DNA of 39,894 nucleotides from Jimgerdemannia flammicorona. Its lineage: Eukaryota. Below, one piece after another: positions 4,303 through 39,894 of this stretch (positions are counted from its first letter, which is position 1; every line of letters begins with the position of its first letter). The stretch lies in assembly GCA_003990765.1 (NCBI GenBank), contig RBNJ01000131.1, positions 1-39,894 on the forward strand. The letters are read 5' to 3'. Under the pieces are notes generated by a model. The model was not told the origin of the DNA and ran no database searches. It was given only the letters and a program-made list of their open reading frames with translations. A program made the position numbers and the translations under genes.

Positions 4303-4306
4303 ATAG

Positions 4307-5878: not shown

Positions 5879-5888
5879 TCTTTCTCCT
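5879..5888 (-). promoter_or_regulatory. Polypurine tract of element B
   Basis: AGGAGAAAGA on the minus strand immediately before the 3' LTR. Confidence 0.85.
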
Positions 5889-5912
5889 GAATAAGAATCT
5901 TCTTGAATATTC

Positions 5913-6227
5913 TTATTCATTGGTCCAGTCTTGAAAAATTTGCTAATCCCATAACCTCTGGCAAGGGGTTGAAAAGTGGTGTTTATGGGCTAGTATCTTT
6001 TCTTTGTATTTTGGCATGATGGTGAAGGGTTGCTCTCTTCATATAGAGCAAGGACCTGATTCTGATCTTAACCAATCAGTTGATGGTTCAAACTCCTCTA
6101 GCTTTGAAAGTCTCATGGATGAGTAGTTGCTGGTACCATATCCCTTAGAGAATGGTTCAGACAGATAGTTTGCTGGTCATGAGACATGCTGTTACGATTT
6201 GTGGACTAGAATCTTATGGGCAGTCAT
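5913..6227 (-). pseudogene. Extra ~104-codon ORF between integrase and PPT of element B, function unknown
   Basis: ATG 6 nt after the IN stop; MTAHKILVHKS*QHVS*PANYLSEPFSKGYG...GPCSI*REQP...HKHHFSTPCQRLWD*QIFQDWTNE; frame is kept and four internal stops are explicable by C>T/G>A. Confidence 0.45.
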
Positions 6228-6233
6228 TATATT

Positions 6234-7443
6234 TTACTTCTCTTGTATAGATTCATGGTACTTCTTGAGTCTGCTCCTATATACCATAGTAAGCAGTATG
6301 GTCTCTGAGATTTTTCTAAGCTAGAAGGTAGTTCCCTTAATATCTTGCATATAGAAGGGTCCTTCTCATTTGGGCTCCAGTTTTTGCAATCATGAGGCTT
6401 CTACCATATTTCAATACAGTAGGACCTTTTCTCTGATTTGGATGGATTCTAGAGTCTTGTGATTCTTTTCTGCATTTTTCTTTATCAGTACTTATGACTT
6501 GATGATACATATAATCTTCAGCCTTCTTCTTGATTTGGTATAGTCTCCAGATTTCTGCATTGACCCATCTCCAAGTTAGGTCTAGATTTGTGGCTAAGGT
6601 TCCATCAGAATCTTCTTCTCTGAAGAGCAGTTCTCTTGGGGTAAAGTGTGTACTCTGTGACTGTATGTCTTGTAGGACAGAGAGGGCAGTTGGGAGATAG
6701 TTATCTCAATTCTCATATATCTCTGAGATCTTCACCAGGATGTTCTTGAGGGTCTTGTTGGTTCTTTCTGTCTATCCATTTCCTTGAGAGTGATAGGCAG
6801 TAGTCTTGATGTGCTGAATCTTGTATTTCTGATACATTATCTCATAGAATCCATTGATAAATTCTGTGCTGTAGTCTGTTGTGATTTGCTTCAGTGTCTT
6901 GTAGTAGCAGATGATTTCTCAGTACAGGAAGTTAGCTATAGAGAGGGCATTGGCTTCTTGTAATGCTCCTGCTTCTATCCATTTGGTAAAGAGGTCTACA
7001 ATAACTATAATATAGTAGTTTCCTAATAGTATTACTAGTAGTAGCCCAATGATATCCATTGCAATATGGTAGAAGGAGATAGGCTCAATTCTTGATGACC
7101 TGGGTGCCTGGTCTTACTGATCTTGTTTCTGTTTTTAGTACTTATTACACTCTTTGACAAATTGGTGCAGGTCTTCTTTCATTTTGGGCCACTATATAGT
7201 TTTTCTTGCCTTGTTGTATATATTGATTCCACTTAGATATCCTTGCTCATATACTTCCTTCATTACTTGACACTTCTTATGTTCAGGTATTACTAGCTTT
7301 CCTCCTTTTCTGAGTATAATATTGTCTAGTTCAAACTGTTTTCAAGTCTGGTTGATGATAGTGATTATCTAGAGTTTGAGGTAGTTGGACATCTTCTACT
7401 GTCTAAGATAGCTGATTAATCTATAGTATAACTCCTTATTCAT
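6234..7443 (-). pseudogene. Integrase of element B, in a separate reading frame from RT-RH
   Basis: IAMDIIGLL, VDLFTKWIEA, TTAYHSQGNG, C-terminal GPFY; starts ATGAATAA overlapping the RH stop. Confidence 0.9.
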
Positions 7444-12136: not shown

Positions 12137-13720
12137 TATTATGTAGTGATCACTGAGTCCTTCAAATATATCAGATTCTCTTCAAGGTGTATCTCTTAGA
12201 CTAACTCAAGTTTGTTATAAGCAAATTCTTATTGGAGTGCCTTCCCAAGGTCTTATAGTTCTCAAACTTCTTATCTTTAAACTATCTTGTTATCTCTTTA
12301 GATTGCTTACAAGGAATTGTGTATAAGTGAACCAGAACTGACATTATTTCAGAGAAAATAAGAGGGGTATTTATATAAAATATAATTCAATAGTTGCTAA
12401 AATATAAAGCTAAATATAAATTTCAATAACTAAAACAAAATGCCAGAACAGAAAAACTGCTAAGTTCTAGGGTCAGTATTGATGATTGTATAGGTTCAGG
12501 ATGCTGGTATAATTTCAGTGATACAGAAAAATAGTGTTGGAATAATTCAGTATTACATCAGAATGCTAGTGCTGATATAATTCAGTGTCACATCAGAATG
12601 CTGGTGCTGGCATAATTCAGTATCACCAAAGAACTTTAGAGTAGAATGTTCAAAATCATAGAGGCTTCATCCTCATCAGAGGTCAGGATATCTTTAAAGG
12701 AGATGAGGTCTGTGAATTCATTGTTATTATATAGATTGCATATTTCATATATATCATGCATCTCACATATATTATGTGGGATGACATTATTGCCAATGAC
12801 ATTATCACATTCGACAGTGGCAGGAACAAGGAGGTCTGGGGCTCTCCAGTCTATGAGGTTCTCTTCTACAAAATAGGAGACAAATGTGGGGTCTTGGAGA
12901 GGTCTAACCTGGATGCTTGGGCCTTGGAATACTGAGATCAATCCTTGCAGGAATTGGTCTAGGTTGTCCTGGAGGATGAAATATCAGAAGTCTTCTACTT
13001 CATTACTATTGAGGGTGATAGTAGACTGGGCTTCTGTAGCCACCCTGGCTTCTAGTACATTGATATGGTGGGCTGACAGATCTCTGAAGTCTGAGACTCT
13101 AACATACTCTAAGTTGGGGATTGACCATAGTGTATGTCTGAAGATCTGATGGATCTTCTTAGCTATTCTTATTTCACATATATTCATAGAAATTGCATCT
13201 TATAGCTCTTGAGTGCTGGCCTGTGGAAACTCCCAGCATAGGAGGTTTTCTATCTTGTACTCCTACCACATTTAGAGGTATTCAGTAGCAATGGTGATCC
13301 TTGTTTCCATTTCACAGCAGTAGAGAATATAATAATAAAGGTCACCAGTATCCAGATTGATACTAGGAGTCCTTCTTGAGTAGGTTCTCATGGCTCTTCT
13401 GATATCTTGGAACATTCTTTCTTTGACTGAGATACCTTAATGATTTCTTAATCTTGAGGTTTGACAAGCAGCAGGCATTTTGTTTATGGTAAGTCTTTGA
13501 GCTATTTTGGGATTAGTGGGTCTTGTTGGTTGCTGCTACTACAGTTCCTTGATCCTTCTTTTATATTCCTCAAGATACCCATACTGTGGTTACAATGACT
13601 CACAGTTGGTCATCATTGCTCATCTTGTATGCTGTATGATCTCCTTGTACTTTGATCTGGTGGCTTACAAGGAAAGACTGTCTCCTGTACTAATGTCATC
13701 ATTCTGAGATCACTGTTATA
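12137..13720 (-). repeat. 5' LTR of element B (1584 bp)
   Basis: Direct repeat of 4307-5878; bounded by the PBS and TSD ATAG. Confidence 0.95.
12636..13478 (-). pseudogene. LTR-encoded accessory ORF of family B, copy 2 (280 codons, single frame)
   Basis: ATG 13478 to TAA 12636 without frameshift; five internal stops, all TAA/TAG/TGA derivable from CAA/CAG/CGA/TGG; includes track ORFs 12984-13187 and 12636-12941. Confidence 0.85.
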
Positions 13721-13724
13721 ATAG

Positions 13725-19655: not shown

Positions 19656-19659
19656 CTAT

Positions 19660-20126
19660 TGTGATGATATAGCCAGATTTGGAAGAAGGAAATAGGGAAT
19701 AGATACTTAATTGCACCCAGTCTCAAAGTAGTATAGCCACATAGTTAACAGTTCTCGATTTCGCAACTTGCTAAATATTCCGCAAAGTATAAGATCAAGC
19801 TCCCCAATATAGTATAGCATTTCGCAACTGGCGAAATATTTCACAAAGTATTAAATAACTCATAACTTAGCCACGTAACCCAGTAACCATCTCATAGCTA
19901 GCAAACTTGTATAAATAACCCAGTATCTTTGAGTGAATAAACCTCAGATTGAAATAGTTCAAAGCAAAGAGATAGCAAAGGAACTAGTAAGCCTGTAGGC
20001 AGATACACTTTGAGCTCACCCACCCTCCCCTGCAACTTCAAGAGACTCTGTGAGAGTCAGAATAGTCAAGTTTTCAAGATACAGAAATCCAACATACTTT
20101 CAAGAGTAAGCGTCTGCTACGTTACA
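19660..20126 (+). repeat. 5' LTR of element A
   Basis: TGTGA...TTACA; TATAAATA ~19910; AATAAA ~19935. Confidence 0.97.
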
Positions 20127-20129
20127 ACT

Positions 20130-20138
20130 TGGTGCCCA
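20130..20138 (+). promoter_or_regulatory. Primer binding site TGGTGCCCA (tRNA identity uncertain, His-like)
   Basis: TGG 3 nt after the LTR; complementary to a tRNA end ...UGGGCACCA. Confidence 0.8.
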
Positions 20139-20228
20139 TTGGCTGGTGATTCAAGACAAATCCCTCACTTTCAAGCTGAACAACGAACAACTGCCACTAC
20201 CTAAACCAAGCCCCAATACCCAGACAAG

Positions 20229-23200
20229 ATGGATATGAGACCACTAGTATTCCACGGATATACCTCAGATGAATCAATCATCACCTTCATTGATGATTTC
20301 AAGCAGTATGCCACTGTAAGGACCCTGACAGCAATACAGCAAGTAGCCCTCATGCTCTTTAGCCTATGAGGCCCTGCCAGAGCAGCATTCACAGCTGCAA
20401 CCCATATAGGAAACGATGCTGATGCTGTACTGACAGCACAGAAGACCTGGCTCCGAAATACATATTACACAGACAAGATCAAGCAAGCCCTGAAGGATCA
20501 GCTCAATACAACATACTAAGAAATGAGTGAGGATCCAAACACATTCTATACCAGAATTTGATATCAGATAATCCTTGCAGATTATGCTGCTGCTATCTAA
20601 GATCAAGTAGCCGAAGCAACCTTCATGAAAGGAGTCCACCCAGAAATAGCCATGGCCATCCGCTCATCACCAGTAATTCTGGATCTGCCACAGAAGATCA
20701 CCTATGCTCAGCGATATTAGATAGCCAGACATCCACAAGACCATACAATGGAAAGGGTCACAGGGGTCAGAATTGAGGCACTCAAGGCAACCAGTGTGAT
20801 CCCTATCACAATGATTAATTGGAACACACCTCAGCCAAAAGCTACAGAACAGCAGAAGAACAGTGACCCTATGGAGGAACTCGCCAAAAGGTTTGCCGAA
20901 ATGACCACCCACCTGGGAGATGTAGTAAAGGAAATTCGAGGAAGAGACTGCCACCCTGTTCAGAAGTTCGCCACCACCTCAGACAAGAAGAAAGGTACCT
21001 GCTACACTTGTGGAGAAGAAGGCCACTACTCCTATGAATGTATGAGTGAAACCAAGCACAAGGCTCAACCAAGCAATGCTATACAAAATAAGGAGCAGGC
21101 CAATATAATCACCTTTGAGGAGATTGGAGATTCTGATAAAGAAGAATGAGAGGCCTATCCAGCTCAGACCACCAAGAAGGATGCTCGCAAAAAACCCTAC
21201 AAGAGACCACCAGGAAGACCCAAGAAGAACCCAGTGGAAAAGCAGATGGAAATGGCCACCGAAAGCCAAACTGAAGAGATGGACCAAGATATAGAGCTGG
21301 AACAAGCAGTTCAAGATATTATCTGAGGAACTACTCTAGCCAGTGAAGGAGAAAAAGAAAAGAAGTTGTACAAGACCAAGACCTTCAAGTATGATATCTT
21401 CAAGGACCTCAGTCAATAAAAGGTCAATGCAACCTTTGGTCAGCTTGCAGAAATCCCAACATTCAGACAGCAAATGAGGTTTGGACTTGCCGAAACAACT
21501 AAGGAATAAGGATGGAAGATAACTGAGGCCAATAACACTCAAGAGGACTCAGGAGAAGAAAGTGAGGACAATCGCAAAACCTCTGCATATGCAACATGCC
21601 AAATCGAAGATAGAATCTTCGAGGCTATCATTGATATGGGAGCAGGAGGATGTCTCCTCAGCAAGAAGGCAGCAGACCACCTAGGTTGGGATGTGGAAGA
21701 AGCAACAAAGCTAGTGTTCATCACAGCCGATGGCATAAGAGCCACACCTCTGGGAAAGATCCGAGATGTTCCCATCAAGATTGAAGGAGCAACTATCCCA
21801 GTAGATGTAATCGTAACCAATGCCACCAACTATGACATCCTTATCGGCAATCAATGGCTTCACAAAGCCAAGGCAGTAATTGATCTCAATGCCCAGAAGA
21901 TGCAGATCACCTACTGGGGACAGAAGATACGAATTCCCATCAATGTCAACAAAGGAGTTCTGCCTGATATGGAGGAAGAAGAGAGTGAGCAAGAGGAAGC
22001 TTATATAGTGACTACTCCAAAGAAGAAGAAAGTCAGATGGATGAGTGAAGAAGAATGGTGCAAGAAGATGGCAGAAGGCTATGCACCACAAGGAGTCTGT
22101 CCTCATGGGATCAAGATGTACTGTATGGAGCATGTCAATGATTGCTACCAGTGCACCATTGGAATCAGAAAGATCCACCAGACAAGAAGGCAGAAAGCTC
22201 TTGAAAAACAGATCAGGGAAGAAAAGAAGGAGGAAGATGATGAACCACTAGCTCTCCTGGAGGACAGTAATGATGAAGAAGAAATCAAGGTCAAAATTCG
22301 AAAGATCCACCCTGATGCAGTCTTGCCAGAATATAAGTCAGAAAATGCAGCCAGAATGGACATCACTACAGTAGAAGAAACCATACTGGAACCCCAGACA
22401 ACCACCTTACTTGCAACTGGATTGGAGATGACCATCCCAAAGGATTATGTCAGGATTCTTAAGACAAGAAGCAGTCTGGCTAGAAGCAAAATTACAATCG
22501 AAGGAGAAGTCATCGATTCAGACTACACTGGAGAAATTCTACTCATTGCTAGGAATCACAATCCTACAATCCCATTTCCAGTCAAGAAGAAGGACCAATT
22601 GGCACAAATGTTGATCTTCCCGATCCTACAACCAAAGATCATAGAGGTTAAGAAGCTGAAGGAAACAAGAAGAGGAAAGAAAGGATTTGGATCCACAGGA
22701 AGAGAAGTATTCGCTAACACCAAGATCACCGAACTCGAGCATAAGAAAGAGGAAAACACAAGCAAGCACAGCTACACCATTGGAAATGAATTTCCACTCA
22801 AGAAAGAACTCAAGAAAATACTCCACGAATTCGAAGATATCCTTGCCACAGATTTCAAGGATATCAAAGGAAAGACCCCACACTACTATCACGAAGTAGA
22901 TACTGGAGACACAGAACCAATTTATCAGAAAGCAAGACCTGTCCCACCAGCCTACCAAGAATGGCTCAGAGAAGAAATCAAGCAGATGGAAGAAGCCAGT
23001 ATCATTAAAGAAGCAAGCAGCCCCTGGTCCTCACCTGTTGTACTGGCCCCAAAAAAAGGGAGTAAGCCTGGAGAATTCGCCCCAAGACTCTGTGTTGACT
23101 ACAGAAAACTCAACATGGTTACCAAGAAGGATCGCCAACCACTGCCCCTCATCAATGACATCCTCATAATACTGGGAGATGAAGCACAATACTACAGCAC

Positions 23201-24221
23201 CTTGGACTTATACTCAGGATTCCACCAAATTGGACTTACAGACATGGTAAGTGAAAAGTCAGCTTTCATCACTCCAGACGGAACCTACATCTACCTACGA
23301 ATGCCATTTGGAATATACAATGCACCAGCAAGTTTCCAGCGAATGATGAACAAAATCTTCCGCTATGACATGGGAAGATGGATGATGGTCTACATCGATG
23401 ATGTAATCATCTACAGCAAAACACCTGAGGAATATCTACAGTACATACAGCAGATAATGGAGAGACTAAGACAACATAGTCTTTACATCAAACCCAAGAA
23501 ATGCAAGTTCACAGAAATCGAGATCTCCTATCTCGGCCACATCATCAATCAAGATGGAACACACACGTACCCCCTCAAGATACAAGCAGTGGTAGCATAT
23601 CCAAGACCCACCACTGTTACAGAAGCCCAAGCCTTCATGGGACTTGCCTCCTATTATCGCAGATTTATTAGAGGATTTTCTAATATTGCGGGACCAATCT
23701 ACAAACTCAACAAGAAGGATACCAAGTTCCAGTGGACTGGCAGACAACAAAAAGCATTTGATGAACTCAAGGTCAGACTAACCCAGGCACCCATCCTCAG
23801 AAGACCTGACTGGACTCAAGAATTCATCCTACAGACTGATGCAAGTGCACAAGGACTAGGAGCAGTTCTAGCTCAAAAGAAAGATAAAGTGGAGTATGTC
23901 ATCATATACCTCAGCTGCGGAACCCGAGGAGCTGAAAAAGAATATGAATCCTACAAGTTGGAATGCCTCGCAGTCATCTGGGCCATAGAAAAGTTCCACT
24001 ACTACTTGGCTGGAAGACACTTCATCATCCAAACAGACCACTCAGCTCTCACCTGGCTACTGACAACTGGACAACCCAAAGGAATCTATGCCAGATGGAT
24101 AATGAAGTTGCAAGCTTATGACGTAACCATCATACATCGCTCTGGAAGAACTAATGCCAATGCAGATGCCCTCTCACAGATACCCCGAAGGACCCTACCC
24201 CCACAAAATCACCATGAATAA
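20229..24221 (+). pseudogene. Single-frame gag-PR-dUTPase-RT-RNaseH of element A (stops in gag; 861-aa open segment 21636-24221)
   Basis: Zn knuckle CYTCGEEGHYSYEC; protease IIDMGAG (from DTGAG); dUTPase RSSLA, VIDSDYTGEI, RGKKGFGSTG; RT LCVDYRKLN, YIDD; RH TDASAQGLGAVL, NADALS. Confidence 0.95.
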
Positions 24222-25404
24222 GGAGCTCTACTACGGAATTATCACATACCTGGGACAGTGAAAGATGCCCCAACATCTGGAAGAATAGATACAAACGATT
24301 ATCAACAGAACATGGAAACAATTCGAAACTGATGGAGAAACACTGAAGAAAGGAAAACTACTAGTCATACTAGAATACAAGAAGGAGCAAGCGATGAAAT
24401 CAGTATATGAACTTGGCCATCTAGGAGGAACAAATACATATGACAAGACAAGAAGAACAATATGGTAGCCAGGGATAGAGGAAGATATCAGATAATTCAT
24501 CAAGACCTGCAACAAATGCCAGAAACAGAAACAAGACCAACGAAATCAAGCCCCAGGTTCAGCACACATAGAACCAGTACCATTTGCCCACATTGCAATG
24601 GATATAATCGGTCCCCTACCCTTGACCTTGACTGGCAACCGATACATCATCATTATCGTAGACCTCTTTACAAAATGGATAGAAGCGGGACCCCTTATGG
24701 AAGCCAATGCACAGTCAATTGCTGATTTCTTCCACAAGGAAATCATCTGCCAGTTCAAGATCCCAACACAAGTAACTACAGATAGAGGAACTGAATTTGT
24801 GAACCAGTTCTTCGAAGTTCTCTACAAGAAGTACAAGATCCAGCATATTCGGACCACAGCATATCACCCTCAAGGAAATGGATAAGTAGAAAGGACCAAC
24901 AAAACCCTCAAGAATGTTATTGCCAAGATCTGTGATAACTACGAGAACTGGGATCACTATCTACCAATAGCATTATCTGCTCTCCGGGATATCCAATCAC
25001 AAAGCACCCACTTTACCCCTCAAGAAATGCTGTTCGGAGAAGAATGTTCTCAGGGAACCTTGTCATCCAATGGAGATACTGTATAGAAACATGTGGACAT
25101 GGAAATATGGAGACTACACCAAATCAGGAAGAAGGCTGAGAATTACATAACGAAGGCACAGACACTACAATGGAGGAATGCAGAAAAGACCCACAAATCC
25201 TTGGAGATTATCAAGATAGGAGACAAAGTCCTAGTATATCAGAATATGGTTGAAGCTTCATGGTCATGAAAACTGAAGCCCAAGTAGGAAGGACCTTACC
25301 TTGTGCAAAATATAAAAGGAACCACCTTTTGGCTATGAAAACCCTCAGGCACAATAATCCCCACCACCATTTACCGAAACTGACTCAAGAAATATCATGG
25401 CTAG
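24214..25404 (+). pseudogene. Integrase of element A, +1 frame relative to RT-RH
   Basis: GHLG...CNKC zinc domain; MDIIGPLP, TDRGTEF, YHPQGNG*VERTN catalytic core; GPY motif; several C>T/G>A stops. Confidence 0.93.
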
Positions 25405-25858
25405 TAATAAAAGTACTGTGATGGCACTTAAGATCACTAGTACTGCCCAAAGAGCCATTGAGAGACAATAGTGCACCACTGAGCCTCCAACCATAGAAGA
25501 GTCTTATGACAGTATCCAAAGCATCGTACAGACTCATCTCTCTCAGATCTCACACTTCAAGGCCTATCAGCATTGAAACGAATTCCAAGAGTACTTCAAA
25601 CTCGGCCAAGTACTCAACCAAGACCCAGAAATGACCAAAGAAAACTGGATCGCAGAATGTCAGCTCTCCTATTCCCAGATCACCATTGCCAAGAGAATCC
25701 ACAAGCTATTCCGAGAGGATGAATCAGCATTAGCCCACCTGCGAGGAGTGACTCCCTCAGACTTCGACTGAGTCAGGCAACACCATTGGGAAACAGTGAT
25801 ACAACAAATTGCACAATATAAGACCATACAGACCATTGAAGCTTGGGAGTTTGAATAG
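25397..25858 (+). pseudogene. ORF3: 153-codon accessory protein of element A
   Basis: MASNKSTVM...FQEYFKLGQVL...QITIAKRIHKLFREDESALAHLRGVTPSDFD*VRQHHW...EFE*; three internal stops (TAG, TGA, TGA), no frameshift. Confidence 0.8.
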
Positions 25859-25885
25859 ATGCTTTAGGGACGAGATCATCTATTC

Positions 25886-25894
25886 AGGAGGAAG
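25886..25894 (+). promoter_or_regulatory. Polypurine tract of element A
   Basis: AGGAGGAAG just before the 3' LTR. Confidence 0.85.
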
Positions 25895-25895
25895 T

Positions 25896-26362
25896 TGTGA
25901 TGGTATAGCCAGATTTAGAAGAAGGAAATAGGGAATAGACACTTGATTGCACCCAGTCCCAAAGTAGTATAGCCACATAGTTAACAGTCCTCGATTTCGC
26001 AACTTGCTAAATATTCCACAAAGTGCAAGATTGAGCTCCCCGATATAGTATAGCATTTCGCAACTGGCGAAACATTTCGCAAAGTGTTAAATAACTCATA
26101 ACTTAGCCATGTAACCCAGTAACCATCTCATAGCTAGCAAACTTATATAAATAACCCAGTATCTTTGAGTGAATAAACCTTAGATCGAAATAGTTCAAAG
26201 CAAAGAGATAGCAAAGGAACTAGTAAGCCTGCGGGCAGATATACTTTGAGCTCACCCACCCTCCCCTACAACTTCAAGAGACTCTGCGAGAGTCAGAACA
26301 GTCAAGTTTTCAAGATACAGAAATCTGACATACTTTTAAGAGTAAGTGTCTGCTACATTATA
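25896..26362 (+). repeat. 3' LTR of element A
   Basis: Gap-free match to 19660-20126 with about 31 substitutions. Confidence 0.97.
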
Positions 26363-27008: not shown

Positions 27009-27054
27009 TCCGCCTTCAGACAGATTAAAAAGACTTAAACAGCTAGATTAATAA

Positions 27055-28558
27055 TGTAAGTGCACAACCTCTAAGCCACCAAAATCATATGGCATTCTTA
27101 GAACTAATTTGGAAACCACATGTGAGACTACAAAACAAGTTACTGAAGAGATTATCTGGTTACATGAAATATACCAGTAAGCACGAGAACTCACCACTAA
27201 GATACAAGAATACTAGAAGAAGTATATACTACAACCATAAGACTGACTCTGAACTGTTATAACTAGTTTGGTGTACTATACTATTACAAAAGAAAACCAA
27301 AAGTACCAAACTCAAATTGAGACAAAAAGAACCCTATCTCATCTATCAAAAGGTTTACAAACTGCACTTATCAACTCAAGACCAAGATACACTATGACTA
27401 TATAAGACCTTATTACTTAGCAGAAGTAAAATACATTTGAACAACTCCATTTGCTCTATCTGTATCACCTCCATTGGAGAGTGATGGATGCTTCATCTGA
27501 ACTCAAGAAAGCCAACATCATCGAAACCAATCTCAAGCCATCTATGTGATAGATATTACTACTAGAAATTGCCTCAGATTATAGAAAATATCATTTCTGA
27601 GAGGTTTGAACCCCCAGCCATGACATTGGGAGCCCTTGCCCTAGACGAGAATGGCCAGTCCTCACAAATGCACCAGCAGACCAAAAAAAAAGAGAACCAA
27701 GATCTGTTATCCTTGTACAACCATTGCCACCAAGGACAGCCTTAATCTTGTAAGAGATAAAAGTGATGATACCTTTGAAACTGATGATGTCAGAAGTCAG
27801 AAAACTGCTCAGACCTTGCCAGCAATGATGTCATCAATAGTGATGTCATCAAAGACTAACCAGATAGTATCTAAACCTATAAATAGCTTAGCAGTCATAG
27901 TATAGTTAGATTAGCCTTGTACGACATGACTGTGAACTAACTCAGCAGTCAGATGATCTCTTGACATACCAGATCACTCTTATACTATATAACTGCATTC
28001 CAACTCAGCAAGGCACTTAGTGCTACATCCATATCTAGCATAGTCCAGATAGCCTCTCACTAGTATAAAAACCCCCTCTTCCAGACCTCAGAATCTCAGA
28101 CTTGAACAGACTTGAATACAAAGAATACTCCTGAATACTTTTCCATAATATCCCTTTATACAACTACTCCTAGTAGAGTAATATCATGAATAGCGAATAA
28201 ACCTATTTAATAACCCACAAACCACTCTTAAGTAAATTTACTCCCATTAGGTCCCACTCCTAACCCCATCACAAAATTTCCTAATTGGGTATTGTCTGTA
28301 GCGATATGCCAATTCAACTAAGCTGGTCTTAGTTTCTTGAACTTTCTGAAATACAGAAAATCCTGAACATCTAGAACTAGTCCAAAAAAGGACTTTGATT
28401 GAGATATCAATCTGATCTTAAAATCAATAAGCATAGAGGATATACTCCATATGAAATTGATCTTGACCTTAAGAAAATGGTCTTCCAGAATATCTAGAAC
28501 TTCCAGAAAACCCTTCCAGAACTACATAATGGTTACCCTAAAAAGCAACCCTCTTATA
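27055..28558 (+). repeat. Solo LTR, family C variant 2 (1504 bp)
   Basis: TGTAAG...CTTATA; 5-bp TSD AATAA (27050-27054, 28559-28563); first ~40 nt and last ~720 nt match 35564-37627. Confidence 0.9.
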
Positions 28559-28724
28559 AATAATATAAGTTATATAGTATATATATTATATTGGCTGATA
28601 GTTGAGGCCATGATCAAACTTCATTCTAATTATTTGAAAAAATGTATTATTATTAGATATATTATCTATTGTTATAGCTAATATCTAGAGTGAAAAATCA
28701 ATAATTTGAAATATAAGATAACTG

Positions 28725-28908
28725 TTTTTTAAAAACCCAACTTTTATCAAAAACCCAACCTTTTTTGAAACCTCAATTTTTCAAAAATCTAATCTTTTTT
28801 GAAAACCTGAATCTTTTTTAAAAACCTGACCTTTTTGAAACCCCAACTTTTTTTAAAAACCTAATCTTTTTCAAAAACTTGATCTTTTCAAAAACTCTTT
28901 TTGAAAGG
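28725..28908. repeat. Imperfect ~18-bp tandem array (AAAACCC/TnAnCTTTTTG), about 10 units
   Basis: Directly visible; alternating A and T runs. Confidence 0.75.
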
Positions 28909-28942
28909 CTTACTTACTCTTTATATATCATTATCTATATAT

Positions 28943-30569
28943 TGTCACATAGTGGTTGCTGAGTCCTTCAAATATACCAGATTCTCTTCAAGGTGTATCT
29001 CTTAGACTAACTCAAGTTTGTTATAAGCAAGTTCTTATTAGAGTGCCTTCTCAAGGTCTTATAGTTCTCAAACTTCTTATCTTTAAACTGTCTTGTTATC
29101 TCTTAGATTGCTTACAAGGAAGTGTATATATTGTACTGAATTAACTGAATTGACTGAATTGACTGAATTGACTGAATTGACTGACTTTATTTCAGAGAAA
29201 ATAAGAGAGATATTTATACAAAATATAATTCAATGGTTGCTAAGATATAAAGCTAAATATAAATTCCAATAACTAAAATAAAATGCCAGGGCAGGAAAAA
29301 CTACTAAGTTCCAGGGTCAGTACTGATAGTTGTACAGGTTCAAGATGCTGGTATAATTCAGTATTATATCAAATACTTACTGGTATTATTCAGTATTATA
29401 TCAAATACTGGTGCTGGCATTATTCAGTATTACATCAAATACCGGTGCTGGCATTATTCAGTATTACATTAAATACCAGTACTGGTATTATTCAGTATAA
29501 CAAAAAACTTAGAGCAGAAAGTTCAGGACTATGGAGGCTTCATCCTCATTGTTACTGAAGAAGATAAGATCCATAAATTCATCATTATTGTATAGGTCAT
29601 ACATTTCACATGTTTCAATGTTGTGTGAGATAACATCATCACTGATGATGTCATCACATTTGGCAGTGGCAGAAACAAAGAGATCTGGAGCTCTCTAGTC
29701 TATAAGGTTCTCTTCCACAAAATAGAGGACAAATGTGGGATCTTGGGGAGGTCTAATCTGGATACTTGGGCCTTAGAATACTGAGATCAACCCTTGCAGG
29801 AATTGGTCTGAGTTGTTCTGGAGAATAGGATGCCAGAAGTCTTCTACTTCATTACTATTGAGGGTGATAGTGGACTGGACTTCTATAGCCACTCTGGCTT
29901 CTAGTATATTGATATGGCAAAATGACAGGTCTCTGAAATCTAAGACTCTAATATACTCCAAGTTGGAGATTGACTATAGTACATGCCTGAAGATCTGATG
30001 GATCTTCTTAGCTGTCCTTACCTCATATATATCCATAGGAGTGGTATCTTGTAGCTCTTGAGAGCTGGCCTGTGGGAACTTCCAGCAGAGAAGGTTTCTT
30101 ATTTTGTACTCCTGTCATATTCGGAGGCATTCAGTAGCAATAGTGATCCTTGTTTCTATTTCATGGTAGTAGAGGATATAATAATAAGGGTCACCAGTAC
30201 CCAGGTTAATACTAGGAGTCTCTCTTGTATATGTCCTCATAGCTCTTCTGATATCTTAGAATATTCTTTCTTCAACTAAGGTATCTTGGTGGTTCCTTGA
30301 CCTTGAGGTTTGGCAGGCAGCAGACATTTTGTTTGTGGTAAGTCTTTGGGCTATTTTGGGATTGGTGGGTCTTATTGGTTACTGCTACTGTGGTTTCTTG
30401 ATCCTTCTTTTATATTCCTCAGAATGCTTGTATTGTGGTCACAATGACTCACAGTTGGTCATTGTTGCTCATCTTGTATGTCATATGATCTTCTTGTGCT
30501 CCAATCTGGTGGCTTGCAAGAAAAGACTATCTCCTGTACTGATGTCATCATTCTGGGGTCACTGTTACA
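28943..30569 (-). repeat. Solo LTR of family B (1627 bp)
   Basis: TGTCACA...TGTTACA; TSD ATAT (28939-28942, 30570-30573); homologous to the B LTRs; private GAATTGACT expansion ~29137-29185 and ~31-bp repeats 29345-29500. Confidence 0.93.
29509..30327 (-). pseudogene. LTR-encoded accessory ORF of family B, copy 3
   Basis: Includes track ORF 29773-29961 (EYIRVLDFRDLSFCHINILEARV). Confidence 0.75.
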
Positions 30570-31297
30570 ATATCAAAATCTCAAACACAGCTCTCAAAGA
30601 CATCAGCAAGATTTTTACCAGAATGAGATTCTGATAGCTTAATAAAATCAATCAATATATAGTTGAGTTACTAATTTTGACAAATTCAATATACATTAAT
30701 TTTAAGAAATATATATTGTGACAGCTGATCCGAATTAGTAACATGAAATAGAGAAATTAGACATTTGATTGCAGTATCTGAATCTGATTCCCAATATAGC
30801 TTAGCCTTATAAAAATAGTAGCCATATTCTGCAAAGTGCAGAAACTTTAATGTTTGCAAAGATTTAAGAGATGTTAGAATCTTCACAATTAGTGAAATCT
30901 TAGCAGATGTTAAAAGATTCAATACTTGCAAAATGAGCTATTACTTAGCAACCTTATAGCTAGCAAAACTTGTATAAATAACCTAGTATCTTAGAGTGAA
31001 TAAACCTCAGATTGAAATAGTTCAAAAGCAAAGAGATAGCAAAGGAACTAGTAAGCCTGTGGGCAGATATACTTCGAACTCACCCACCTCTGTATCCCAA
31101 GGACTCCAAGGAGTCAGAAAGATCAAGTATTCAAGATACAGAAATCTGACATACTTTTAAGACTAAGTGTCTGCCATATTACAACTTGGTGCCCATTGGC
31201 TGGTAATTTAAGATGAATCCCTCACTTTCAAGCTGAACAACAAACAACTATCACTATCCAAGCAACTACACAAACTGAGTCAAGATACCTAGACAAA

Positions 31298-34271
31298 ATG
31301 GATATGAGACCACCAGTATTCCATGGATATATCTCAGATGAATCAATCATCACTTTTATTGATGACTTTGAGCAGTATGCTGCTGTAAGGATACTGACAG
31401 CAGCACAGCAAGTAGCCCTCATGCCCTTCAGTCTATGAGGTCCTGCCAGAGCAGCATTCACAGCTGTAATCCATGCAGGAAATAATACTGATGCTATATT
31501 GACAGCACAGAAGACCTAGCTCTGAAATACATATTACACAGATGAGATCAAGCAAGCCCTGAAGGATCAGCTCAATACAATATGCCAAGGAATGAGTGAG
31601 GACCCAAACACATTCTATACCAGAATCTGATATCAGATAATCCTTACAGATTATGCTGTTGCTATCTGAGATCAAGTAGTCAAAGCAACCTTTATGAAAG
31701 GAGTTCACCCAGAGATAGCTATGGCTGTCCATTTATCACCAGTAGTCTTGGATCTGCCACAGAAGGTCACTTATACTCAGTGATATTGGACAGCCAGACA
31801 CCCACAAGACCATACAATAGAAAGAGTTACAGGAGTCAGAATCGAAATACCCAAAGCAACTAGTGTGATTCCTACTACAATGATCAATCAAAACACACCT
31901 CAGTCAAAAGCTACAGAGTAGCAAAAGAACAGTGACCCTATGGAGGAACTTGCCAAGAGGTTTGCTGAAATGACCACCCACCTGAGAGATGTGGTAAAGA
32001 AAATCCAAGGAAGAAACTGCCACTCAGTCCAGAAGTTTACCACTACCTTGGATAAGAAGAAAGATACCTGCTATATCTGTGGAGAAGAAGGCCACTACTC
32101 CTATGAATATATGAGTGAAACCAAGCACAAGGCTCAACCAAGCAATGCTATATGAAACAAGGAGCAGGCCAATATAATTACCTTCAAAGAAATTGGAGAT
32201 TCTGATGAAGAAGAATAGGAGGCTTATCCTGCTCAGACTACCAAGAAGGATGTTTGCAAGGAACTCTACAAGAGACCACCAGGAAGATCCAAGAAGAATC
32301 CAGTAGAAAAGTAGATAGAAACTGCCACTGAAAGCCAAGTGGAAGAGATGGACCAAGATATAGAGCTGGAGCAAGCAGTTCAAGATATTATCCAAGGAAC
32401 TACTCCAGCCAGCAAAGGAGAAAAAGAAAAGAAATATCACAAGACCAAGACTTTCAAGTATGATATCTTCAAGGACCTTAGCCAACAAAAGGTCAATACA
32501 ACCTTTGGTCAGCTTACAGAAATCTCAACATTCAGACAGCAAATGAGATTTAGACTTGCTGAAACAACCAAGGAGCAAGGATGGAAGATAACTGAGGCCA
32601 ATAATGTTCAAGAGGACTCAGGAGAAGAAAGTGAAGACAATCACAAAACCTCTGCCTATGCAACATATCAAATCGAAGATAGAGTCTTTGAAGCTATTAT
32701 TGATACTGGAGCAGGAGGATGTCTCCTTAGTAAGAAAGCTGCAGACCACCTAGGTTGGGAGGTTAAAGAAGCAATCAAGTTGGTGTTTGTCACAGTAGAC
32801 AGCACAAGAGCCACCCCTCTGAGAAAGATCCAAGATGTCCCCATCAAGATTAGAGGAGCAACCATTCCAGTAGATATAATTGTAACCAATGTCACCAACT
32901 ATGACATTATCATCAGCAATCAATGGCTTCACAAAGCTAGGATAGTAATTGATCTCAATGCTCAGAAGATGCAAATTACCTACTGGGGACAGAAGATATG
33001 AATTCCCATCAATGTCAACAAAAGAGTCTTGCCTGACATGGAGGAAGAAGAGAGCAAGCAAGAGAAAGCTTATATAGTGACTATTCTGAAGAAGAAAGTT
33101 AGATAGATAAGTGAAGAAGAATGGTATAAGAAGATTACAGAAGGCTATACACTATAAGGAGTCTGTCCTCACAGGATCAAAATGTACTGTATGGAGCATG
33201 TCAATGATTGCTACCAGTGCACCATCAGAATCAAGAAGATCCACCAGGAAAGAAGATAGAAAGCTCTTGAAAAACAAATCAGGAAAGAGAAGGAGGAGGA
33301 AGATGATAAACCACCAGCCCTCCTGGAGAATAGTGATGATGAAGAAGAAATCAAGATTAAGATTTGAAGGACACACCCTAATACAGTCTTGCCAGAATAC
33401 AAGTCAGAAAATGCAGCCATAATGGACATTGCCACAGTAGAAGAAGCTATACTGGAACCCCAAACAACCACCCTACTCACAACTGGACTGAAGATAACTA
33501 TCCCAAAGGATCATATCGGGATCCTTAAGACAAGAAGCTATCTGGCCAGAAGCAAAATTACTATTGAAGGAGGAGTCATTGATTCTGACTATATGGGAGA
33601 AATTCTGCTCATTGCTAGGAATCACAACCCTACAATCTCATTCCCAGTCAGGAAGAAGGACTGATTGGCACAGATGTTGATCTTTCCGATCCTACAACCA
33701 AGGATCATAGAAGTCAAGAATTTGGAGGAAACAAAAAGAGAAAAGAAAGGATTCAGATCCACAGGAAGAGGAGTATTTGCCAGTACCAAGATCACTGAAC
33801 TGGAGCATAGGAAGGAGAAAATCACAAACAAGCATAGTTACACTATTGGAAACAAATTCCCACTCAAGGAGGAACTCAAGAAAATACTTCATAAATTTGA
33901 GGATGTCCTTGCTACAGATTTCAAGGATATCAAAGGAAAGACTCCACACTACTATCATGAGGTAGATACTGGAGACACTGAACCAATTTACCAGAAGGGA
34001 AGATCTGTCCCACCAGCCTACCAAGAATGGCTCAGAGAAGAAATCAAGCAAATAGAAGAAGCTGGTATTATCAAAGAAGCCAGCAGCCCCTGGTCTTCAC
34101 CAGTTGTATTAGCCCCAAAAAAAGGAAGCAAACCTGGAGAATTCGCCCCAAGACTCTGTGTTGACTATAGAAAGCTCAATGTAGTTATTAAGAAGGATCA
34201 CCAACCACTGCCCCTCATCAGTGACATCCTTATAATACTGGGAGATGAAGCACAGTACTACAAAAAAAAAG

Positions 34272-34310
<39 letters not shown>

Positions 34311-35336
34311 CACAGTACTACAGCACCTTGGACTTATACTCAGGATTCCACCAAATCAGACTCACAGAGATGGCAAGTGAAAAGTCAGCCTTCATCACCC
34401 CAGATAGAACCTACATCTACCTATGAATGCCATTCAGAATGTGCAATACACCAGCAAGCTTCCAGTGAATGATGAACAAAATCTTCTGCTATAATATAGG
34501 AAGATGGATGATGGTCTATGTTGATGATGTAATCATCTACAGTAAGATACCTGAGGAACATCTGCAGCACATATGGCAGATAATGGAAAGACCGAGAAAG
34601 CATAGCCTGTACATCAAGCCTAAGAAATGCAAATTTGCAGAAATTGAGATCTCCTATCTTGGCCATGTTATCAATCGAGATAGAATACATATGACCCCCT
34701 CAAGATACAAGCAGTAGTAACATACCTAAGGCCCACCACTATTACAGAAGTCCAAGCCTTCATGGGACTTGCCTCTTACTATTATAGATTTATCAGAGAA
34801 TTCTCCAACATTATGGGTCCAAGCTACAAACTCAACAAGAAGGACACTAAGTTCCAGTAGACTGGCAGACAATAAAAAGCATTTGATGAACTCAAGGTCA
34901 GACTGACCCAGGCACTCATCCTCAGATGACCCAATTGGACTCAAGAGTTTATCCTTCAGACAGATGCAAGTGCACAAGGACTAGGAGCAGTCCTAGCTCA
35001 AAAGGAAGACAAAAAAGAGTATATTATTGCATACCTTAGCCATGGAACCCAAGGAGCCAAAAAAGAATACAAATCCTACAAGTTGGAATGCCTCACAGTC
35101 ATCTGGACTGTGGAAAAGTTCTGGCTGGAAGACACTTCAACATTCAGATGGACCACTCAGCTCTCACCTGGCTACTGACAACTGGACAACCCAAAGGAAT
35201 CTATATCAGATGGATAATAAAGTTACAAGCCTATGATGTAACCATTGTACACTGCTCTGGAAGAATAAATTTCAATGCAGATGCTCTCTCATAGACACCT
35301 CTAAACATCTCTAACCAATAAATCAATTACGAATAA
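31298..35336 (+). pseudogene. gag-PR-dUTPase-RT-RNaseH of element D
   Basis: CYICGEEGHY, IIDTGAGG, GGVIDSDYMGEI, LCVDYRKLN, YVDD, NADALS; many stops and frameshifts. Confidence 0.93.
34262..34307 (+). mobile_element. Poly(A)-only insertion with a 14-bp target-site duplication
   Basis: AAGCACAGTACTAC at 34248-34261 and 34308-34321; element A has one copy and no poly(A) at the equivalent site (~23182). Confidence 0.9.
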
Positions 35337-35851
35337 GGAGCTCTACTATAGAATCATTATATATCTGAGATAGCGAAAAATGGGGTCCTGGATGCTGATG
35401 GAGACATGGTTCATAGCACACAACAAATCCTGGGGGTCTTGAAGGAGAGATGGCAGGGTTTGTGGAGTGAGGGAGAAGGGGGTGCAGATGAGGCAGAGAT
35501 TGTGAATTCACTAGATGAGTGAGGGCCACCGCCAGTTGCTAGACTGGGGGATTTGATCTTACCTGTAAGCGCACAACCTCCAAGCCACCGAAATTACACG
35601 TCACCCTCTGAACAAGCCACTGAAATCACATGCGAGCTCTGAACGAATCTGGAAATCACCTGCTTGATCATGAAGCTGAGTCAAACCGAAGTCACAGTGC
35701 ACAAAGCTGAGTCAATACAAAGTCACGGAACACAAGATCTACACAAACAGAACCTTACCAATCAGGACCAAATGCATATATACTGAGCACCGAGATGCGT
35801 CAAATCAGAGAACCAAAACAAACAACAACCACAACTTCCAAACACACAAAC

Positions 35852-36340
35852 ATGACCACTGAGATCTATAACTGCATCCGCGCTGACATTTGGAATGCCA
35901 TTGTCAACCGAGCCACACCCCCTCTGCCCCTCATGAATATCCATAGCCTGGCACCCCTCTACTTCATGGAAGCCCAATGGAACGCCCTGAACATGCTTAA
36001 CGAGGCCCACCGAATCGGACAAATCTCAAGCTACTACCAGATCAGCCACCTCCTGGAAGACATGGTCGAATACCACCATGATACAGACATTACCCAGATG
36101 TCTCAACACCAGAAGCTCATCGCCCGCAAACATCGAGAACTCTTCTATGAGTACAATACCTTTATTTCCCGCCTCCGAGTCACTACCAGTGAAATGGTTG
36201 CTACCCTGTCCTATGGCCAAATCGATGACATGATACAAGAACTCAACCACAAGTACCTCGAGTATGTCAAAACCACAGACAGAACCTTCCCGCACCCTGA
36301 TGACCATATCCTACAAATGCCTCAAGTCAGTACGCCATGA
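35852..36340 (+). CDS. Uninterrupted LTR-encoded accessory protein (162 aa from ATG 35852; 181 aa from 35795), related to ORF3 of A and the LTR ORF of B
   Basis: SYYQISHLL...MSQHQKLIARKHRELFYEYNTFISRLRVTTSEMVATLS motif; no internal stop. Confidence 0.75.
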   Translation: MTTEIYNCIRADIWNAIVNRATPPLPLMNIHSLAPLYFMEAQWNALNMLNEAHRIGQISSYYQISHLLEDMVEYHHDTDITQMSQHQKLIARKHRELFYEYNTFISRLRVTTSEMVATLSYGQIDDMIQELNHKYLEYVKTTDRTFPHPDDHILQMPQVSTP

Positions 36341-36948
36341 AGGACGTCTATGATATAATCCAATTCGACAAAGATGAAGCAGAAGACAATGATCCCTCTG
36401 ACGCTGACATGACCTCTAGCCAAGGATCTCTGCCAACCCTGATCACTCCACCAACCTTGCTGATGAACTTACAACAGTTCATAACCACATACGAGACTTA
36501 TTGAGACAATGACTACTGGTACAAATACCAACCCGCGTTTACCCCTGATTACTTCAATTACAATAAAGAGACCAGAGAACACAACCTGTACCTCCAAACA
36601 ACCCTAGAGATTGAACCAACAACCCCACCACCTGAGTACGAATGACATGAACCACAGCCGCCAGCTTACTACAACCCTGCGACTCATAGTGCTGTAACCT
36701 ATAGAAGGTATACAGACAGTGAATCCGATGAAAGCGAAGACAGTACACCCATCCTTTGCCCACCAACACCTTATCCAGCATATGAAACAGACAATGCTAT
36801 CCTGTGGGATGGAGATGAAGTCCCAATATATTACTATCTCAGCCAACAAGGAGAAGTAATCCGTGAACCACTATTCCTAGACGACTACTTCATCAGAGAT
36901 GATGCAATTAATGGTGATGTCATCGAGGACTACCCAGATAGTGCCTAA
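36337..36948 (+). pseudogene. Second LTR-C ORF: 203 codons, acidic and Pro/Tyr-rich, two PPxY motifs
   Basis: ATGA overlap with the upstream ORF; two internal TGA (probably from CGA); MKDVYDIIQFDKDEAED...TTPPPEYE*HEPQPPAYY...EDYPDSA*. Confidence 0.65.
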
Positions 36949-39894
36949 ACCTATAAATAGTCTAGCAGTCATAGTATAGATAGATTAGCCTTGTACGACG
37001 TAACTGTGAACTGACTCAGCAGTCAGACGATCTCTTGACATGTCAGATCACACTTGTACTACATGACTGCATTCCAACTCAGCAAAGCACTTAGTGCTAC
37101 ATCCATATTCAGCATAGTCCAGATAGCTCCTCACTAGTATAAATACCCCCTCTCCCAGACCTCAGAATCTCAGACTTGAACAAATCCAAACACAACTCCT
37201 GAGCACTTCCCCACAATACCCCTTCACACAAATACTCCTAGTATAGCAATATCATGAATAGCAAATAAACCTATTCCATAACCCACAAACCACTCTTAAG
37301 TAAATCCACTCCCTATTAGGTCCCACTTCTAACCCCATCACGAAATTCCCTAATTGGGTATTGTCTGCAGCGATATGCCAATTCAACTAAGCTGGTCTTA
37401 GTTTCTTGAACTTCCTGAAATACAGAAAATCCTGAACATCCAGAACTAGTCCAAAAAAGGACTTTGGTTGAGACGTCAACCCAATCTTGAAATCAATAAG
37501 CATAGAGGATGTACTCCATACAAAATTGATCTTGACCATAAGAAAACGGTCTTCCAGAACATCCAGAATATCCAGAAAACCTTTCCAGAACTACGTAATG
37601 GTCACCCTAAAAAGTGACCCTCTTACATTACTGGTGCAGGAGGAGGAGATCCAGAGTGTCCTGGCAGCAACTAAGCTTGGGACGGCGCCAGGGGAGGATG
37701 GATTGCCTTGGGACTTCTGGAAGAAGATGGTTAATGTCCCCAGAGTATTGGGTGAGATGGCTGATCTTTGTGACCATGTCATTCAGAGTAGTGGGTGGGT
37801 TGGAGAGCAGGATCTGGGTCTGGTGGCCTTACTGTACAAAGACAAGAGAAGGAGGGAAGATTGGAAGAACTGGAGGCCAATTATGCTTCTGGATATGGAC
37901 AGGAAGATGGTGACTAAGGTGATTATCGCAAGGCTGCAGAAGGTTGCCCAACAGGTGCTGGGGGAAGAGCAGAGGGGCTTTGTTGGGGGCAGGCTAATAA
38001 GAGATGGGACTGCATGGGTTCATGGTATCATTGAAGGGGCCCAGGCCTGTGGACTGGATGGAAGGTTGGTCTTTCTGGACCAGGAGAAGGCCTATGACCA
38101 TGTATAGTGGGTGTGGCTGGGAAAAGTGTTGGACCGAATTGGTGTTTCTCCAACATTTAGGTCCTCTATGTTGAGTCTGCTGGATAGTAGTCGGGCAGCT
38201 CTGATGTGTAATGGTTACCATGGGAGGGCATTTCCCTTGGGAAGGGGAGTACCTCAGGGGGACCCTCTATCCCCGATTCTCTATGCCCTGTCACTGGAGC
38301 TGTTAATGGATAGGATTTGCCAGAAGGTAGCAGGGCTCTCTATATATGGTATAGTGTGGAAGGTGGGGGCCTTTGCTGATGATATGGTGGTTGGACTTGG
38401 GTCTGTGGTGGATATTGAGGCACTTCAGGAGACTGTGGAATGGTATGAGGCTCATTCAGGGGCAAAACTCAACTGGCATAAGTGTGAGACAATGGTGCTA
38501 GGGAATGGGCTAGTGGGTGGGGACATCATTGGAACAATTATCCCTACTGGTGAGGTGGTGTGGTATCTGGGCATCTTCCTCTCTGTATATGGTTCTGTCT
38601 TGCCACAAGTGTGGTGAGAGGGCAGGGTGAATAGTTGGGGGGAGGCCCTTCGTGGATGGGGAGGCCGCCATATCTCTCTAGCAGGGCGAGTGTCGATCCT
38701 GAATGTATATTGGTTCCCGAAGCTATGGTATGTGGCATATCACCTCAACTTCCCAGCGTGGGTGGTGAAGAAGCTGATGAAGGTGGCTAGAGATTGGATT
38801 TGGGTGGAGAGGAGGTCCCAGGTCAGTTGGGATACTCTTGTGAGACCAGTAGTCAGGGGAGGTCTTGGTCTGGTGGATTTCTCTAAGAGGCTGCACTGCT
38901 TGAGAGCCTGGTGGTTGAAGAGAGCTGTGGAACTGCAGGGTGGAGGTTGGGTGCCTCTGCTGCAGAAGGTATGGGAGATGCGAACATCCCCCTGAGGGTC
39001 CTCTGGAGATCTGCTCTCTTTGGTGGGGCTGAATGGAGTTCAGAGGCTGTAGTTCAAGGGCTTTTGGTGGGGAGTGGCTGATGGAGCACACCAAATTGGT
39101 CTGCGATGGTAAGGTAATGAGGGGGAGGCAGTATGGGGGCCTAATATGTGGTGTTGGGATAGACTGCTCCTGGGGAGTACTCCACTGGCTGTGTTCGATA
39201 TTGGGGAGAGAGTGGAGTGTCAGCAGGGGCTTGGCCAGGACCTTTGGCCGAGTAGCTGGCAGGCAGTTGGAATTGGAGAGGAGTGGGATTGGGCAGGCAT
39301 CTGGTCTTGGAGTGCTGAGGTATGGAGATGGCTTCCTCCCAAGTTCTGGGTGGTATGGTGGCGAATGCTGCAGAGGAATATCATGCTGAATTTCCACTCG
39401 AGGCATTTAGTAGAGGGTGGACAATTTGACTGTAAGGAGTATTATGGTGTTGGGCAGGCTGGGGGTCATGTACAGACACCAGAACATTGGCTGGGAGAGT
39501 GTGAGGTCTTGGGGGAATTTTGGGCTGAGATAGGGGATAGACTGGGTGTGGGGCGTCGGCGGGTGGGGGAGGGGGGTCGCTGGGAGGACTTAAGATCTCA
39601 GCTTATAGGTGGGGTGGGGGATAGTTGGCTCACTGTAGGATGGGTGTTCGCAGTATGAGTGGGACTGGCGGGCCATTGGTTTTTTGTATTTAAAGAGGGA
39701 CAGCAGTTGGGGCTGTATGAGAAGGTGTTAAGGTGGGAGGTGCTGGTGGGGGATCTGCTGACCAGATGGTGGGTGGGTTGGGGTCCTCAGGGAGGACAAT
39801 GTCATGGTTTGGTGATGATGATCTGTGAGCAGAGTGGTGGGAGGGTGGGGATGTTTTTCGACAAAGTGGTCTTTCACAGAGAATGGGTAGGGGG

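Follow-up and report, generated by a model that had tools for sequence, protein, structure and literature searches.

A fungal Ty3 chromovirus family with an ORF-bearing and a gene-less U3 in its solo LTRs

Swapping of U3 over a conserved R-U5 is already known in LTR retrotransposons, and as such the architecture described here is ordinary. In soybean, Du et al. reportedly described in 2010 that autonomous and non-autonomous elements swap LTRs. Strand-transfer recombination joins the R/U5 of one RNA to the U3 of another, according to the accessible part of PMC6894440. In Podospora, the accessible text on crapaud describes 14 subfamilies of a fungal LTR retrotransposon with LTRs of about 800 bp in total. 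The subfamilies differ in U3, while R-U5 is kept and the internal region is common; recombinant LTRs occur, and template switching is proposed (PMC10787394).

Genes inside or near LTRs are also known. In the accessible part of PMC9412291, the sag/naf ORF of MMTV lies wholly within U3, is found in both LTRs and in solo LTRs, and is driven by a U3 promoter; the virus also has a dUTPase. Further, the additional ORFs of LTR retrotransposons are described as conserved, of unknown origin, located at the 3' end and present in most copies; in the text available they are internal, mostly between pol and the 3' LTR (PMC7264820).

The window studied here is the whole stretch of 39,894 nucleotides from Jimgerdemannia flammicorona (GCA_003990765.1, contig RBNJ01000131.1, positions 1 to 39,894, forward strand). 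It contains two solo LTRs, each with its own 5-bp target site duplication (TSD), at exactly the coordinates given in the initial annotation. The borders between U3, R and U5 in both are placed from motifs.

27050..27054, + strand: 5' TSD of LTR-S, AATAA
27055..28558, + strand: LTR-S, solo LTR of the short, non-coding U3 type (1504 nt; elsewhere this LTR stands next to a PBS or PPT)
27055..27168, + strand: 5' end of the LTR-S U3, homologous to LTR-L at about 70-75%
27169..27812, + strand: LTR-S-specific middle, non-coding, origin not found
27813..28558, + strand: shared block of LTR-S, with a remnant of the LTR-L ORF (last ~19 codons), the U3 promoter part (TATAAA at 28064), R (AATAAA at 28196) and U5
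28559..28563, + strand: 3' TSD of LTR-S, AATAA
35559..35563, + strand: 5' TSD of LTR-L, TTACC
35564..37627, + strand: LTR-L, solo LTR of the long, ORF-bearing U3 type (2064 nt, TG..CA)
35677..35714, + strand: two TGAGTCA motifs upstream of the LTR-L ORF, absent from LTR-S
35852..36948, + strand: U3 ORF of LTR-L, 365 codons in intact copies, broken in the window copy
36887..37627, + strand: shared block of LTR-L, with the ORF tail, TATAAA at 37138, AATAAA at 37264 and R-U5
37628..37632, + strand: 3' TSD of LTR-L, TTACT (one C>T difference, a 4/5 match to TTACC)

LTR-S has the termini TG..TA, its final CA being mutated, and LTR-L is inserted in the RT frame of a non-LTR element. The TGAGTCA motifs we take to be AP-1/Gcn4-like.

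The two LTRs share both ends. Their 3' block is 88.5% identical over 738 nt from 27820/36894 and reaches back to about 27813/36887, in line with the ~720 nt noted initially. The 5' match was put at ~40 nt, which is too short; it extends over about 114 nt (score 94, against a shuffle mean of 29 and a maximum of 43). The middles had been called unalignable, and they remain so when C>T changes are allowed for: with transitions unpenalised the local score is 34, which is at chance level (mean 33.7, maximum 49 in 100 shuffles), and the maximum over 64 copy pairs is 41.

By sequence, both solo LTRs are assigned to one high-copy fungal Ty3 chromovirus with dUTPase and chromodomain. PBS, PPT and backbone are the same in both U3 types, each of which exists in hundreds of copies. 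Over 12 nt the PBS is complementary to the 3' end (CCA added) of a tRNA-like sequence with an initiator-type T-loop, found in 2 places. A long-type element (L096) contains gag, zf-CCHC, dUTPase, protease, RT, RNase H, integrase and chromodomain. Its order PR-RT-RNaseH-IN, the chromodomain at the integrase C-terminus (PF00385, E 5e-15), the TG..CA LTRs, PBS, PPT and 5-bp TSD are those of a Ty3/gypsy chromovirus. The net transversion divergence between the U3 types is 0.21% in gag, 0.13% in dUTPase-protease and 0.24-0.58% in the LTR block common to both; compared with B2, an older subfamily, it is 2.4-4.3%.

We give a probability of roughly 0.7 to the reading that this is one Ty3/gypsy chromovirus family with two U3 modules on one backbone, swapped by strand transfer, the short one being a gene-less passenger. 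The swap may take two routes: minus-strand strong-stop DNA of one co-packaged RNA would be transferred to the 3' end of the other, or the template would be switched inside the shared block of ~740 nt. Long-type elements would supply the short type with Pol and probably also with the U3 protein.

The short type has spread mainly on a backbone without RT-RNaseH-integrase. Among its 179 3' LTRs, 167 follow the deleted junction of the pol-less backbone and 12 an intact 3' UTR. U3 type and autonomy are strongly, though not strictly, linked: short-type LTRs are found at both ends of elements with nearly full pol (L179, L181), and one long-type element lacks pol (L099).

U3 types and R haplotypes recombine freely. 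All four combinations are present (10/21/23/43; 97 classified of 122 copies), which is expected from strand-transfer recombination, as in Podospora crapaud. Within each of the elements L091 and L151 the two LTRs agree in R haplotype, and the haplotype differs between the elements. The observed haplotype mixing could partly be due to post-insertion gene conversion, or to chimeras in this fragmented assembly.

The long-type U3 contains a single ORF of 365 codons, intact in 10 of 55 copies. What the initial annotation described in LTR-L as two ORFs, an accessory ORF and a PPxY ORF, is this one ORF, split in the window copy by a one-base frameshift near 36330 and by stops at 36502 and 36643. The ORF is under purifying selection. 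Its transversions shared between copies are distributed over the three codon positions as 37/19/70 (p 2.5e-7), and those seen in 3 or more copies as 23/6/47, in counts that may include variants shared merely by both LTRs of an element. Singletons are distributed as 77/81/72. The control regions give 23/33/33 (R-U5) and 16/15/13 (3' UTR), while the comparison genes give 3/4/21 (gag) and 57/35/103 (integrase). The same ORF is found in B2 copies at about 45-60% protein identity, and B2 aligns with the long type at about 70%; the long U3 is the type also present in the older subfamily.

The short type is different. Stops common to most of 30 copies occur in all six frames, and 1-nt indels segregate, each common to 4-13 of 62 copies. 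The codon score is mostly under 0.2 in the short middle, compared with about 0-0.57 along the long-type ORF. The different decayed frame noted initially in LTR-S amounts to about 57 codons between stops common to 30/30 copies. The 847 kb of examined loci yielded no donor of the short middle, and genome-wide matches were saturated by the short type's own copies. When a heavily mutated copy was used to look for an older short-type subfamily, all matches were at 85-89%. The short U3 is unrelated non-coding DNA apart from ~110 nt at its start, the final ~19 codons and the core promoter, which it retains.

A gene slot, as first suggested, would mean that the short U3 is what is left of a different, second accessory gene that the ancestor of today's copies already carried in broken form, and that U3 exchange swapped cargo genes. 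We consider this unlikely. Some short-type frames look protein-like by eye, weak positive codon scores reach 0.30 in patches, and other families of the J. flammicorona genome have a different U3 ORF. In addition, the transversions shared between copies are concentrated in one codon position with two of the references (10/17 with L151, 9/14 with L173). However, this skew is gone with a reference of the majority indel state (4/7/5 of 16), and the skewed frame has seven fixed stops within the middle region. Further, the short type has no Pfam match in six frames, the proposed frame, the only one searched in this way, has no homologue among 67 candidates, and profiles of related accessory families give nothing above the level of reversed sequence except the 19-residue tail. 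Thirty copies chosen through the shared block, which has 1414 matches in total, show only two U3 types, 20 copies being long and 10 short. The common backbone and the four haplotype combinations support an exchangeable U3, but two or more different genes at one site are not supported: the second type is non-coding and there is no third in the 30 copies.

It is quite improbable that no exchange took place and that two old subfamilies diverged separately in U3, with the 3' block and the backbone homogenised by post-insertion gene conversion. Conversion is discussed for crapaud in the accessible text (PMC10787394), and over its first 82 nt the short type lies nearer to B2, the old subfamily (3.0% transversions), than to the short-start variants of LTR-L (8.5%). 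On the other hand, the two middles have not just diverged but are unrelated, in contrast to B2, which can still be aligned with the long type, and the agreement in R haplotype within L091 and L151 suggests that exchange preceded insertion. Although the examined loci contain many nested insertions, it is highly improbable that one middle was inserted into, or deleted from, the other, as each type has sequence absent from the other (about 640 nt in the short and 1210 nt in the long), the junctions have no common direct repeat of 6 nt and no inverted repeat of 7 nt, neither middle is flanked by a TSD of its own or by terminal inverted repeats of at least 7 nt, and both forms exist in hundreds of copies.

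With two U3 modules swapped on one backbone, the family resembles crapaud, as far as the latter is described in the accessible text, in its unalignable U3 over a common R-U5 and internal region and in its recombinant LTRs. The likeness is one of the mode of working, and membership is not claimed. Unlike crapaud, this family has LTRs of 1.5 and 2.1 kb and two current types, one of which bears a constrained gene; the accessible crapaud text describes no LTR ORF. As in the strand-transfer and soybean systems, autonomous and non-autonomous partners trade LTR parts, but the exchanged part is regulatory there, whereas here one U3 also bears a gene. With MMTV sag, as far as the source is accessible, the family shares an ORF wholly inside the LTR, under coding constraint, and a dUTPase in the element. 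However, MMTV is a betaretrovirus with env, while this is a fungal chromovirus without env, no sequence similarity was found, and the U3 promoter and function are only putative. Like the additional ORFs in the available text of PMC7264820, this is an extra conserved 3'-end ORF in most copies; it differs in being inside the LTR. The literature searched, mainly openly accessible main texts, contained no description of an ORF within the LTR of a fungal retrotransposon.

The U3 protein matches no Pfam family at E up to 10, its best match among PDB sequences has E 0.58, and neither search gave homology to Sag, Nef, Tas or Env. A profile of the accessory ORF family of neighbouring Ty3 elements, built without the U3 ORF, scores the N-terminal domain of the latter at 9.9-12.1 bits in register (reversed -1.8); hhalign gives this pair a probability of 5% and E 0.008. 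None of 74 candidates from metagenome contigs was confirmed. AlphaFold2 models have pLDDT 32 (full) and 43 (N-terminal part) and are not usable as structures; a fold search with the latter gave no match at E 0.001. Several candidates were set aside. The two PPxY motifs are not kept in a 69% homologue (P0002), which speaks against a late domain; the match to P0004 (E 2.5e-6), a repeat protein, spans 38 residues and is taken as spurious; and the best ESM Atlas scores of 0.80 and 0.87 (closterovirus coat protein, 126/256 features) are a lead only, without Pfam backing.

Our best guess, a tentative one that is less likely than not, is that the protein regulates the element in trans. It would be made from a promoter inside U3 and have a helical N-terminal domain and an acidic, proline-rich tail. 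A bolder version is rather doubtful: the U3 would be a self-contained unit for such a regulator, with its own promoter, ORF and polyA signal in R, and the gene-less U3 a cheater that takes U3 protein and Pol. The U3 modules, of different ancestry and possibly once with a second gene, would be swapped by strand transfer. If so, every solo LTR would be a potential gene copy.

What is unusual here is a 365-codon gene under purifying selection within a fungal Ty3 LTR, accompanied by a naturally occurring U3 that lacks the gene but sits on the same backbone. Together they offer a ready comparison for the role of an LTR-borne accessory gene. They are also a warning that a solo LTR can code for protein and that backbone history is not reflected in LTR subfamily labels.

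Contigs of four sequencing runs lie over a locus with both types. Three of the runs cover both middles; the fourth, RNA by guess, covers them only partly and has its greatest depth over the presumed R region. None of this is counted as expression evidence.

The initial annotation had described two solo LTRs, each with its own target duplication, and both are genuine:

27055-28558: LTR-S, solo LTR of 1504 nt with a perfect AATAA target duplication
35564-37627: LTR-L, solo LTR of 2064 nt with a TTACC/TTACT target duplication, inserted in the RT frame of a non-LTR element

They are alike at both ends, as claimed, with ~114 nt matching at the 5' end and 88.5% identity across 738 nt at the 3' end. 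Their middles, the type-specific parts of U3, cannot be aligned even when C>T decay is tolerated: when transitions carry no penalty, the local score peaks at 34, which is the level of shuffled sequences (mean 33.7, maximum 49 in 100 shuffles), and among 64 pairs drawn from other copies the highest score is 41. A nested insertion is not supported either: no direct repeat of 6 nt and no inverted repeat of 7 nt flanks the two middles. The 5'-terminal part of the long U3 carries a 32-nt tandem unit (35564-35640 in the window, and likewise in further long-type copies); some elements have one such unit, others two.

The long U3 is a coding module under constraint. Rather than an accessory ORF plus a PPxY ORF, as proposed earlier, it holds a single 365-codon frame that opens with an ATG at 35852 and is closed by a stop codon at 36946-36948. 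This frame is uninterrupted in 10 of 55 copies; in the window copy it is broken by a frameshift of one base near 36330 and by stop codons at 36502 and 36643. Differences between copies are predominantly C>T/G>A, and to avoid this bias only transversions were counted, in 122 copies. Transversions found in at least two of these are distributed 37/19/70 over codon positions 1/2/3 (p 2.5e-7, on the assumption that columns are independent, and with both LTRs of an element able to count as sharing), and those in at least three copies 23/6/47. The signal is present in both halves of the ORF. Singletons are flat (77/81/72), as are the controls R-U5 (23/33/33) and 3' UTR (16/15/13); the coding controls gag (3/4/21) and integrase (57/35/103) resemble the U3 ORF.

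The encoded protein has no Pfam family and no solved relative, and its structure models were unusable. Its database homologues are two metagenome proteins (69% and 92%), the former lacking the PPxY motifs. The N-terminal domain may have a weak relationship to accessory ORFs found in two further elements of the window, going by 9.9-12.1 bits against a profile built without the U3 ORF and an hhalign probability of 5%.

The short U3 does not look like a gene, and we regard it as a non-coding module. Stops common to most of 30 copies occur in all six frames of its middle, also in copies with a pol-bearing backbone, and one-base indels are common to 4-13 of 62 copies. A codon score trained on the element is mostly below 0.2 and switches frame in the short middle, compared with ~0-0.57 in one frame for the U3 ORF. 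None of the six frames matches Pfam, and the "different decayed frame" that had been taken for a second cargo, the one of the six searched for homologues, yielded none. Profiles of related accessory families match the short U3 only in what corresponds to the final 19 residues of the long ORF, and no source of the short middle was found within 847 kb of loci. It is possible that the short U3 is a gene that had already decayed before the present copies spread: its shared transversions concentrate in one codon position with two references (9/14 and 10/17). However, the skew is gone (4/7/5) when the reference carries the majority indels, and the frame that shows it contains fixed stops.

The shared block begins, at 27826-27848 and 36900-36922, with paired TGATGTCA / TGATGCAA motifs shortly before a TATAAA. 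Their letters also encode an RDDVI-like peptide, which the U3 protein of the second LTR family listed below carries towards its end as well. Given these paired motifs, the ORF tail retained in the non-coding short type may be kept as a DNA signal.

The 231 Mb genome, whose rDNA seems to be of an early-diverging fungal type, contains 1414 exact matches to a 33-nt motif taken from the shared block. The first 30 in contig order, the window's two LTRs included, comprise 20 long and 10 short types and no third U3 type. Of the "exchangeable gene slot" suggested earlier, exchangeability stands, since the types share a backbone and recombine, but the gene slot does not, with only two types in 30 and the short one not gene-like.

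In other copies the same PBS and the same PPT flank both LTR types. The PBS is complementary over 12 nt to the 3' terminus of a tRNA-like sequence found in two places, whose T-loop we take to be of the initiator type. A long-type copy, L096, encodes gag, zinc knuckle, dUTPase, protease, RT, RNase H, integrase and chromodomain, a content by which the family is classed as a Ty3 chromovirus; the gag N-terminus has no Pfam match. In this copy gag and pol apparently lie in a single frame (2551-8714).

The short type is found mainly on pol-less elements. The interior of short-type elements is mostly 3.4 kb long; ~2.65 kb of pol is missing, as are ~470 nt from the 3' region. By exact-pattern count, the deleted junction precedes 167 short-type 3' LTRs and an intact 3' UTR precedes 12. 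In two of these 12 (L179 and L181) pol is nearly complete, with a short-type LTR at each end; L099 is the single long-type element seen without pol. The older subfamily B2 (~25 copies read, 66-75% identity to the long type) is built on the same backbone and also carries the ORF, so the ORF-bearing U3 is old.

Between short and long types, net transversion divergence amounts to 0.21% for gag, 0.13% for dUTPase-protease and 0.24-0.58% for the LTR block they share, compared with 2.4-4.3% to B2; over its first 82 nt, however, the short type is nearer to B2 (3.0%) than to the long type (8.5%). Just downstream of the TATA box two haplotypes occur in like proportions on short (10 and 21) and long U3 (23 and 43), among 122 copies of which 25 were unclassifiable. 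The U3 types thus recombine freely with the shared block. Both LTRs within an element carry one haplotype in L091 and in L151, and it differs between the two loci. Mixing together with agreement within elements is the pattern expected from intermolecular first strand transfer, described as linking the R/U5 of one RNA to the U3 of another (PMC6894440). The swap would occur during reverse transcription between co-packaged RNAs.

Short-type elements would take Pol in trans. A tentative guess, somewhat less likely than not, is that the U3 protein is a trans-acting regulator borrowed by the short type too; the hints are an acidic, proline-rich tail behind a predicted helical part, a pair of TGAGTCA motifs 5' of the ORF's ATG, which the short type lacks, and a polyA signal 3' of the ORF. 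At another locus, L154 (G000:C247, 1700-2087), the only run guessed to be RNA has far greater contig depth over the presumed R-U5 than over U3, although a start site cannot be read from contigs.

A variable U3 over a conserved R-U5, with recombinant LTRs, is also described for the LTR subfamilies of crapaud in Podospora (PMC10787394), and an ORF within U3, with a U3 promoter, for MMTV (PMC9412291). The extra ORFs described in plant elements sit in the internal region (PMC7264820), unlike the present one. U3 is called the least conserved part of the LTR in a source whose main text mentions no ORFs (PMC3601003). Our literature search, of incomplete coverage, turned up no description of an ORF within the LTR of a fungal retrotransposon. 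The point of note is a constrained gene within an LTR plus its natural gene-less counterpart.

Other features of the window are:

4294-5878, minus strand: LTR of a second family (~1.6 kb, ends approximate), its U3 with a long decayed frame
12139-13723, minus strand: the same
28930-30572, minus strand: the same
21510-24221, plus strand: pol frame with dUTPase between protease and RT
25397-25855, plus strand: 153-codon ORF between integrase and 3' LTR of the Ty3 element at 19659-26360

The second family's U3 frame has intact relatives in metagenomes (P0006, P0007, P0013 and P0017). The 153-codon ORF is related to it (hhalign probability 61%, E 8e-5) and has an intact relative, P0005 (83%). In the pol frame at 21510-24221 dUTPase follows the protease, whereas in the studied family it precedes it. 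Long poly-A runs at 1-89 and 34262-34310, one of them within a Ty3 pol region, are possibly an assembly artefact or a retroposed tail.
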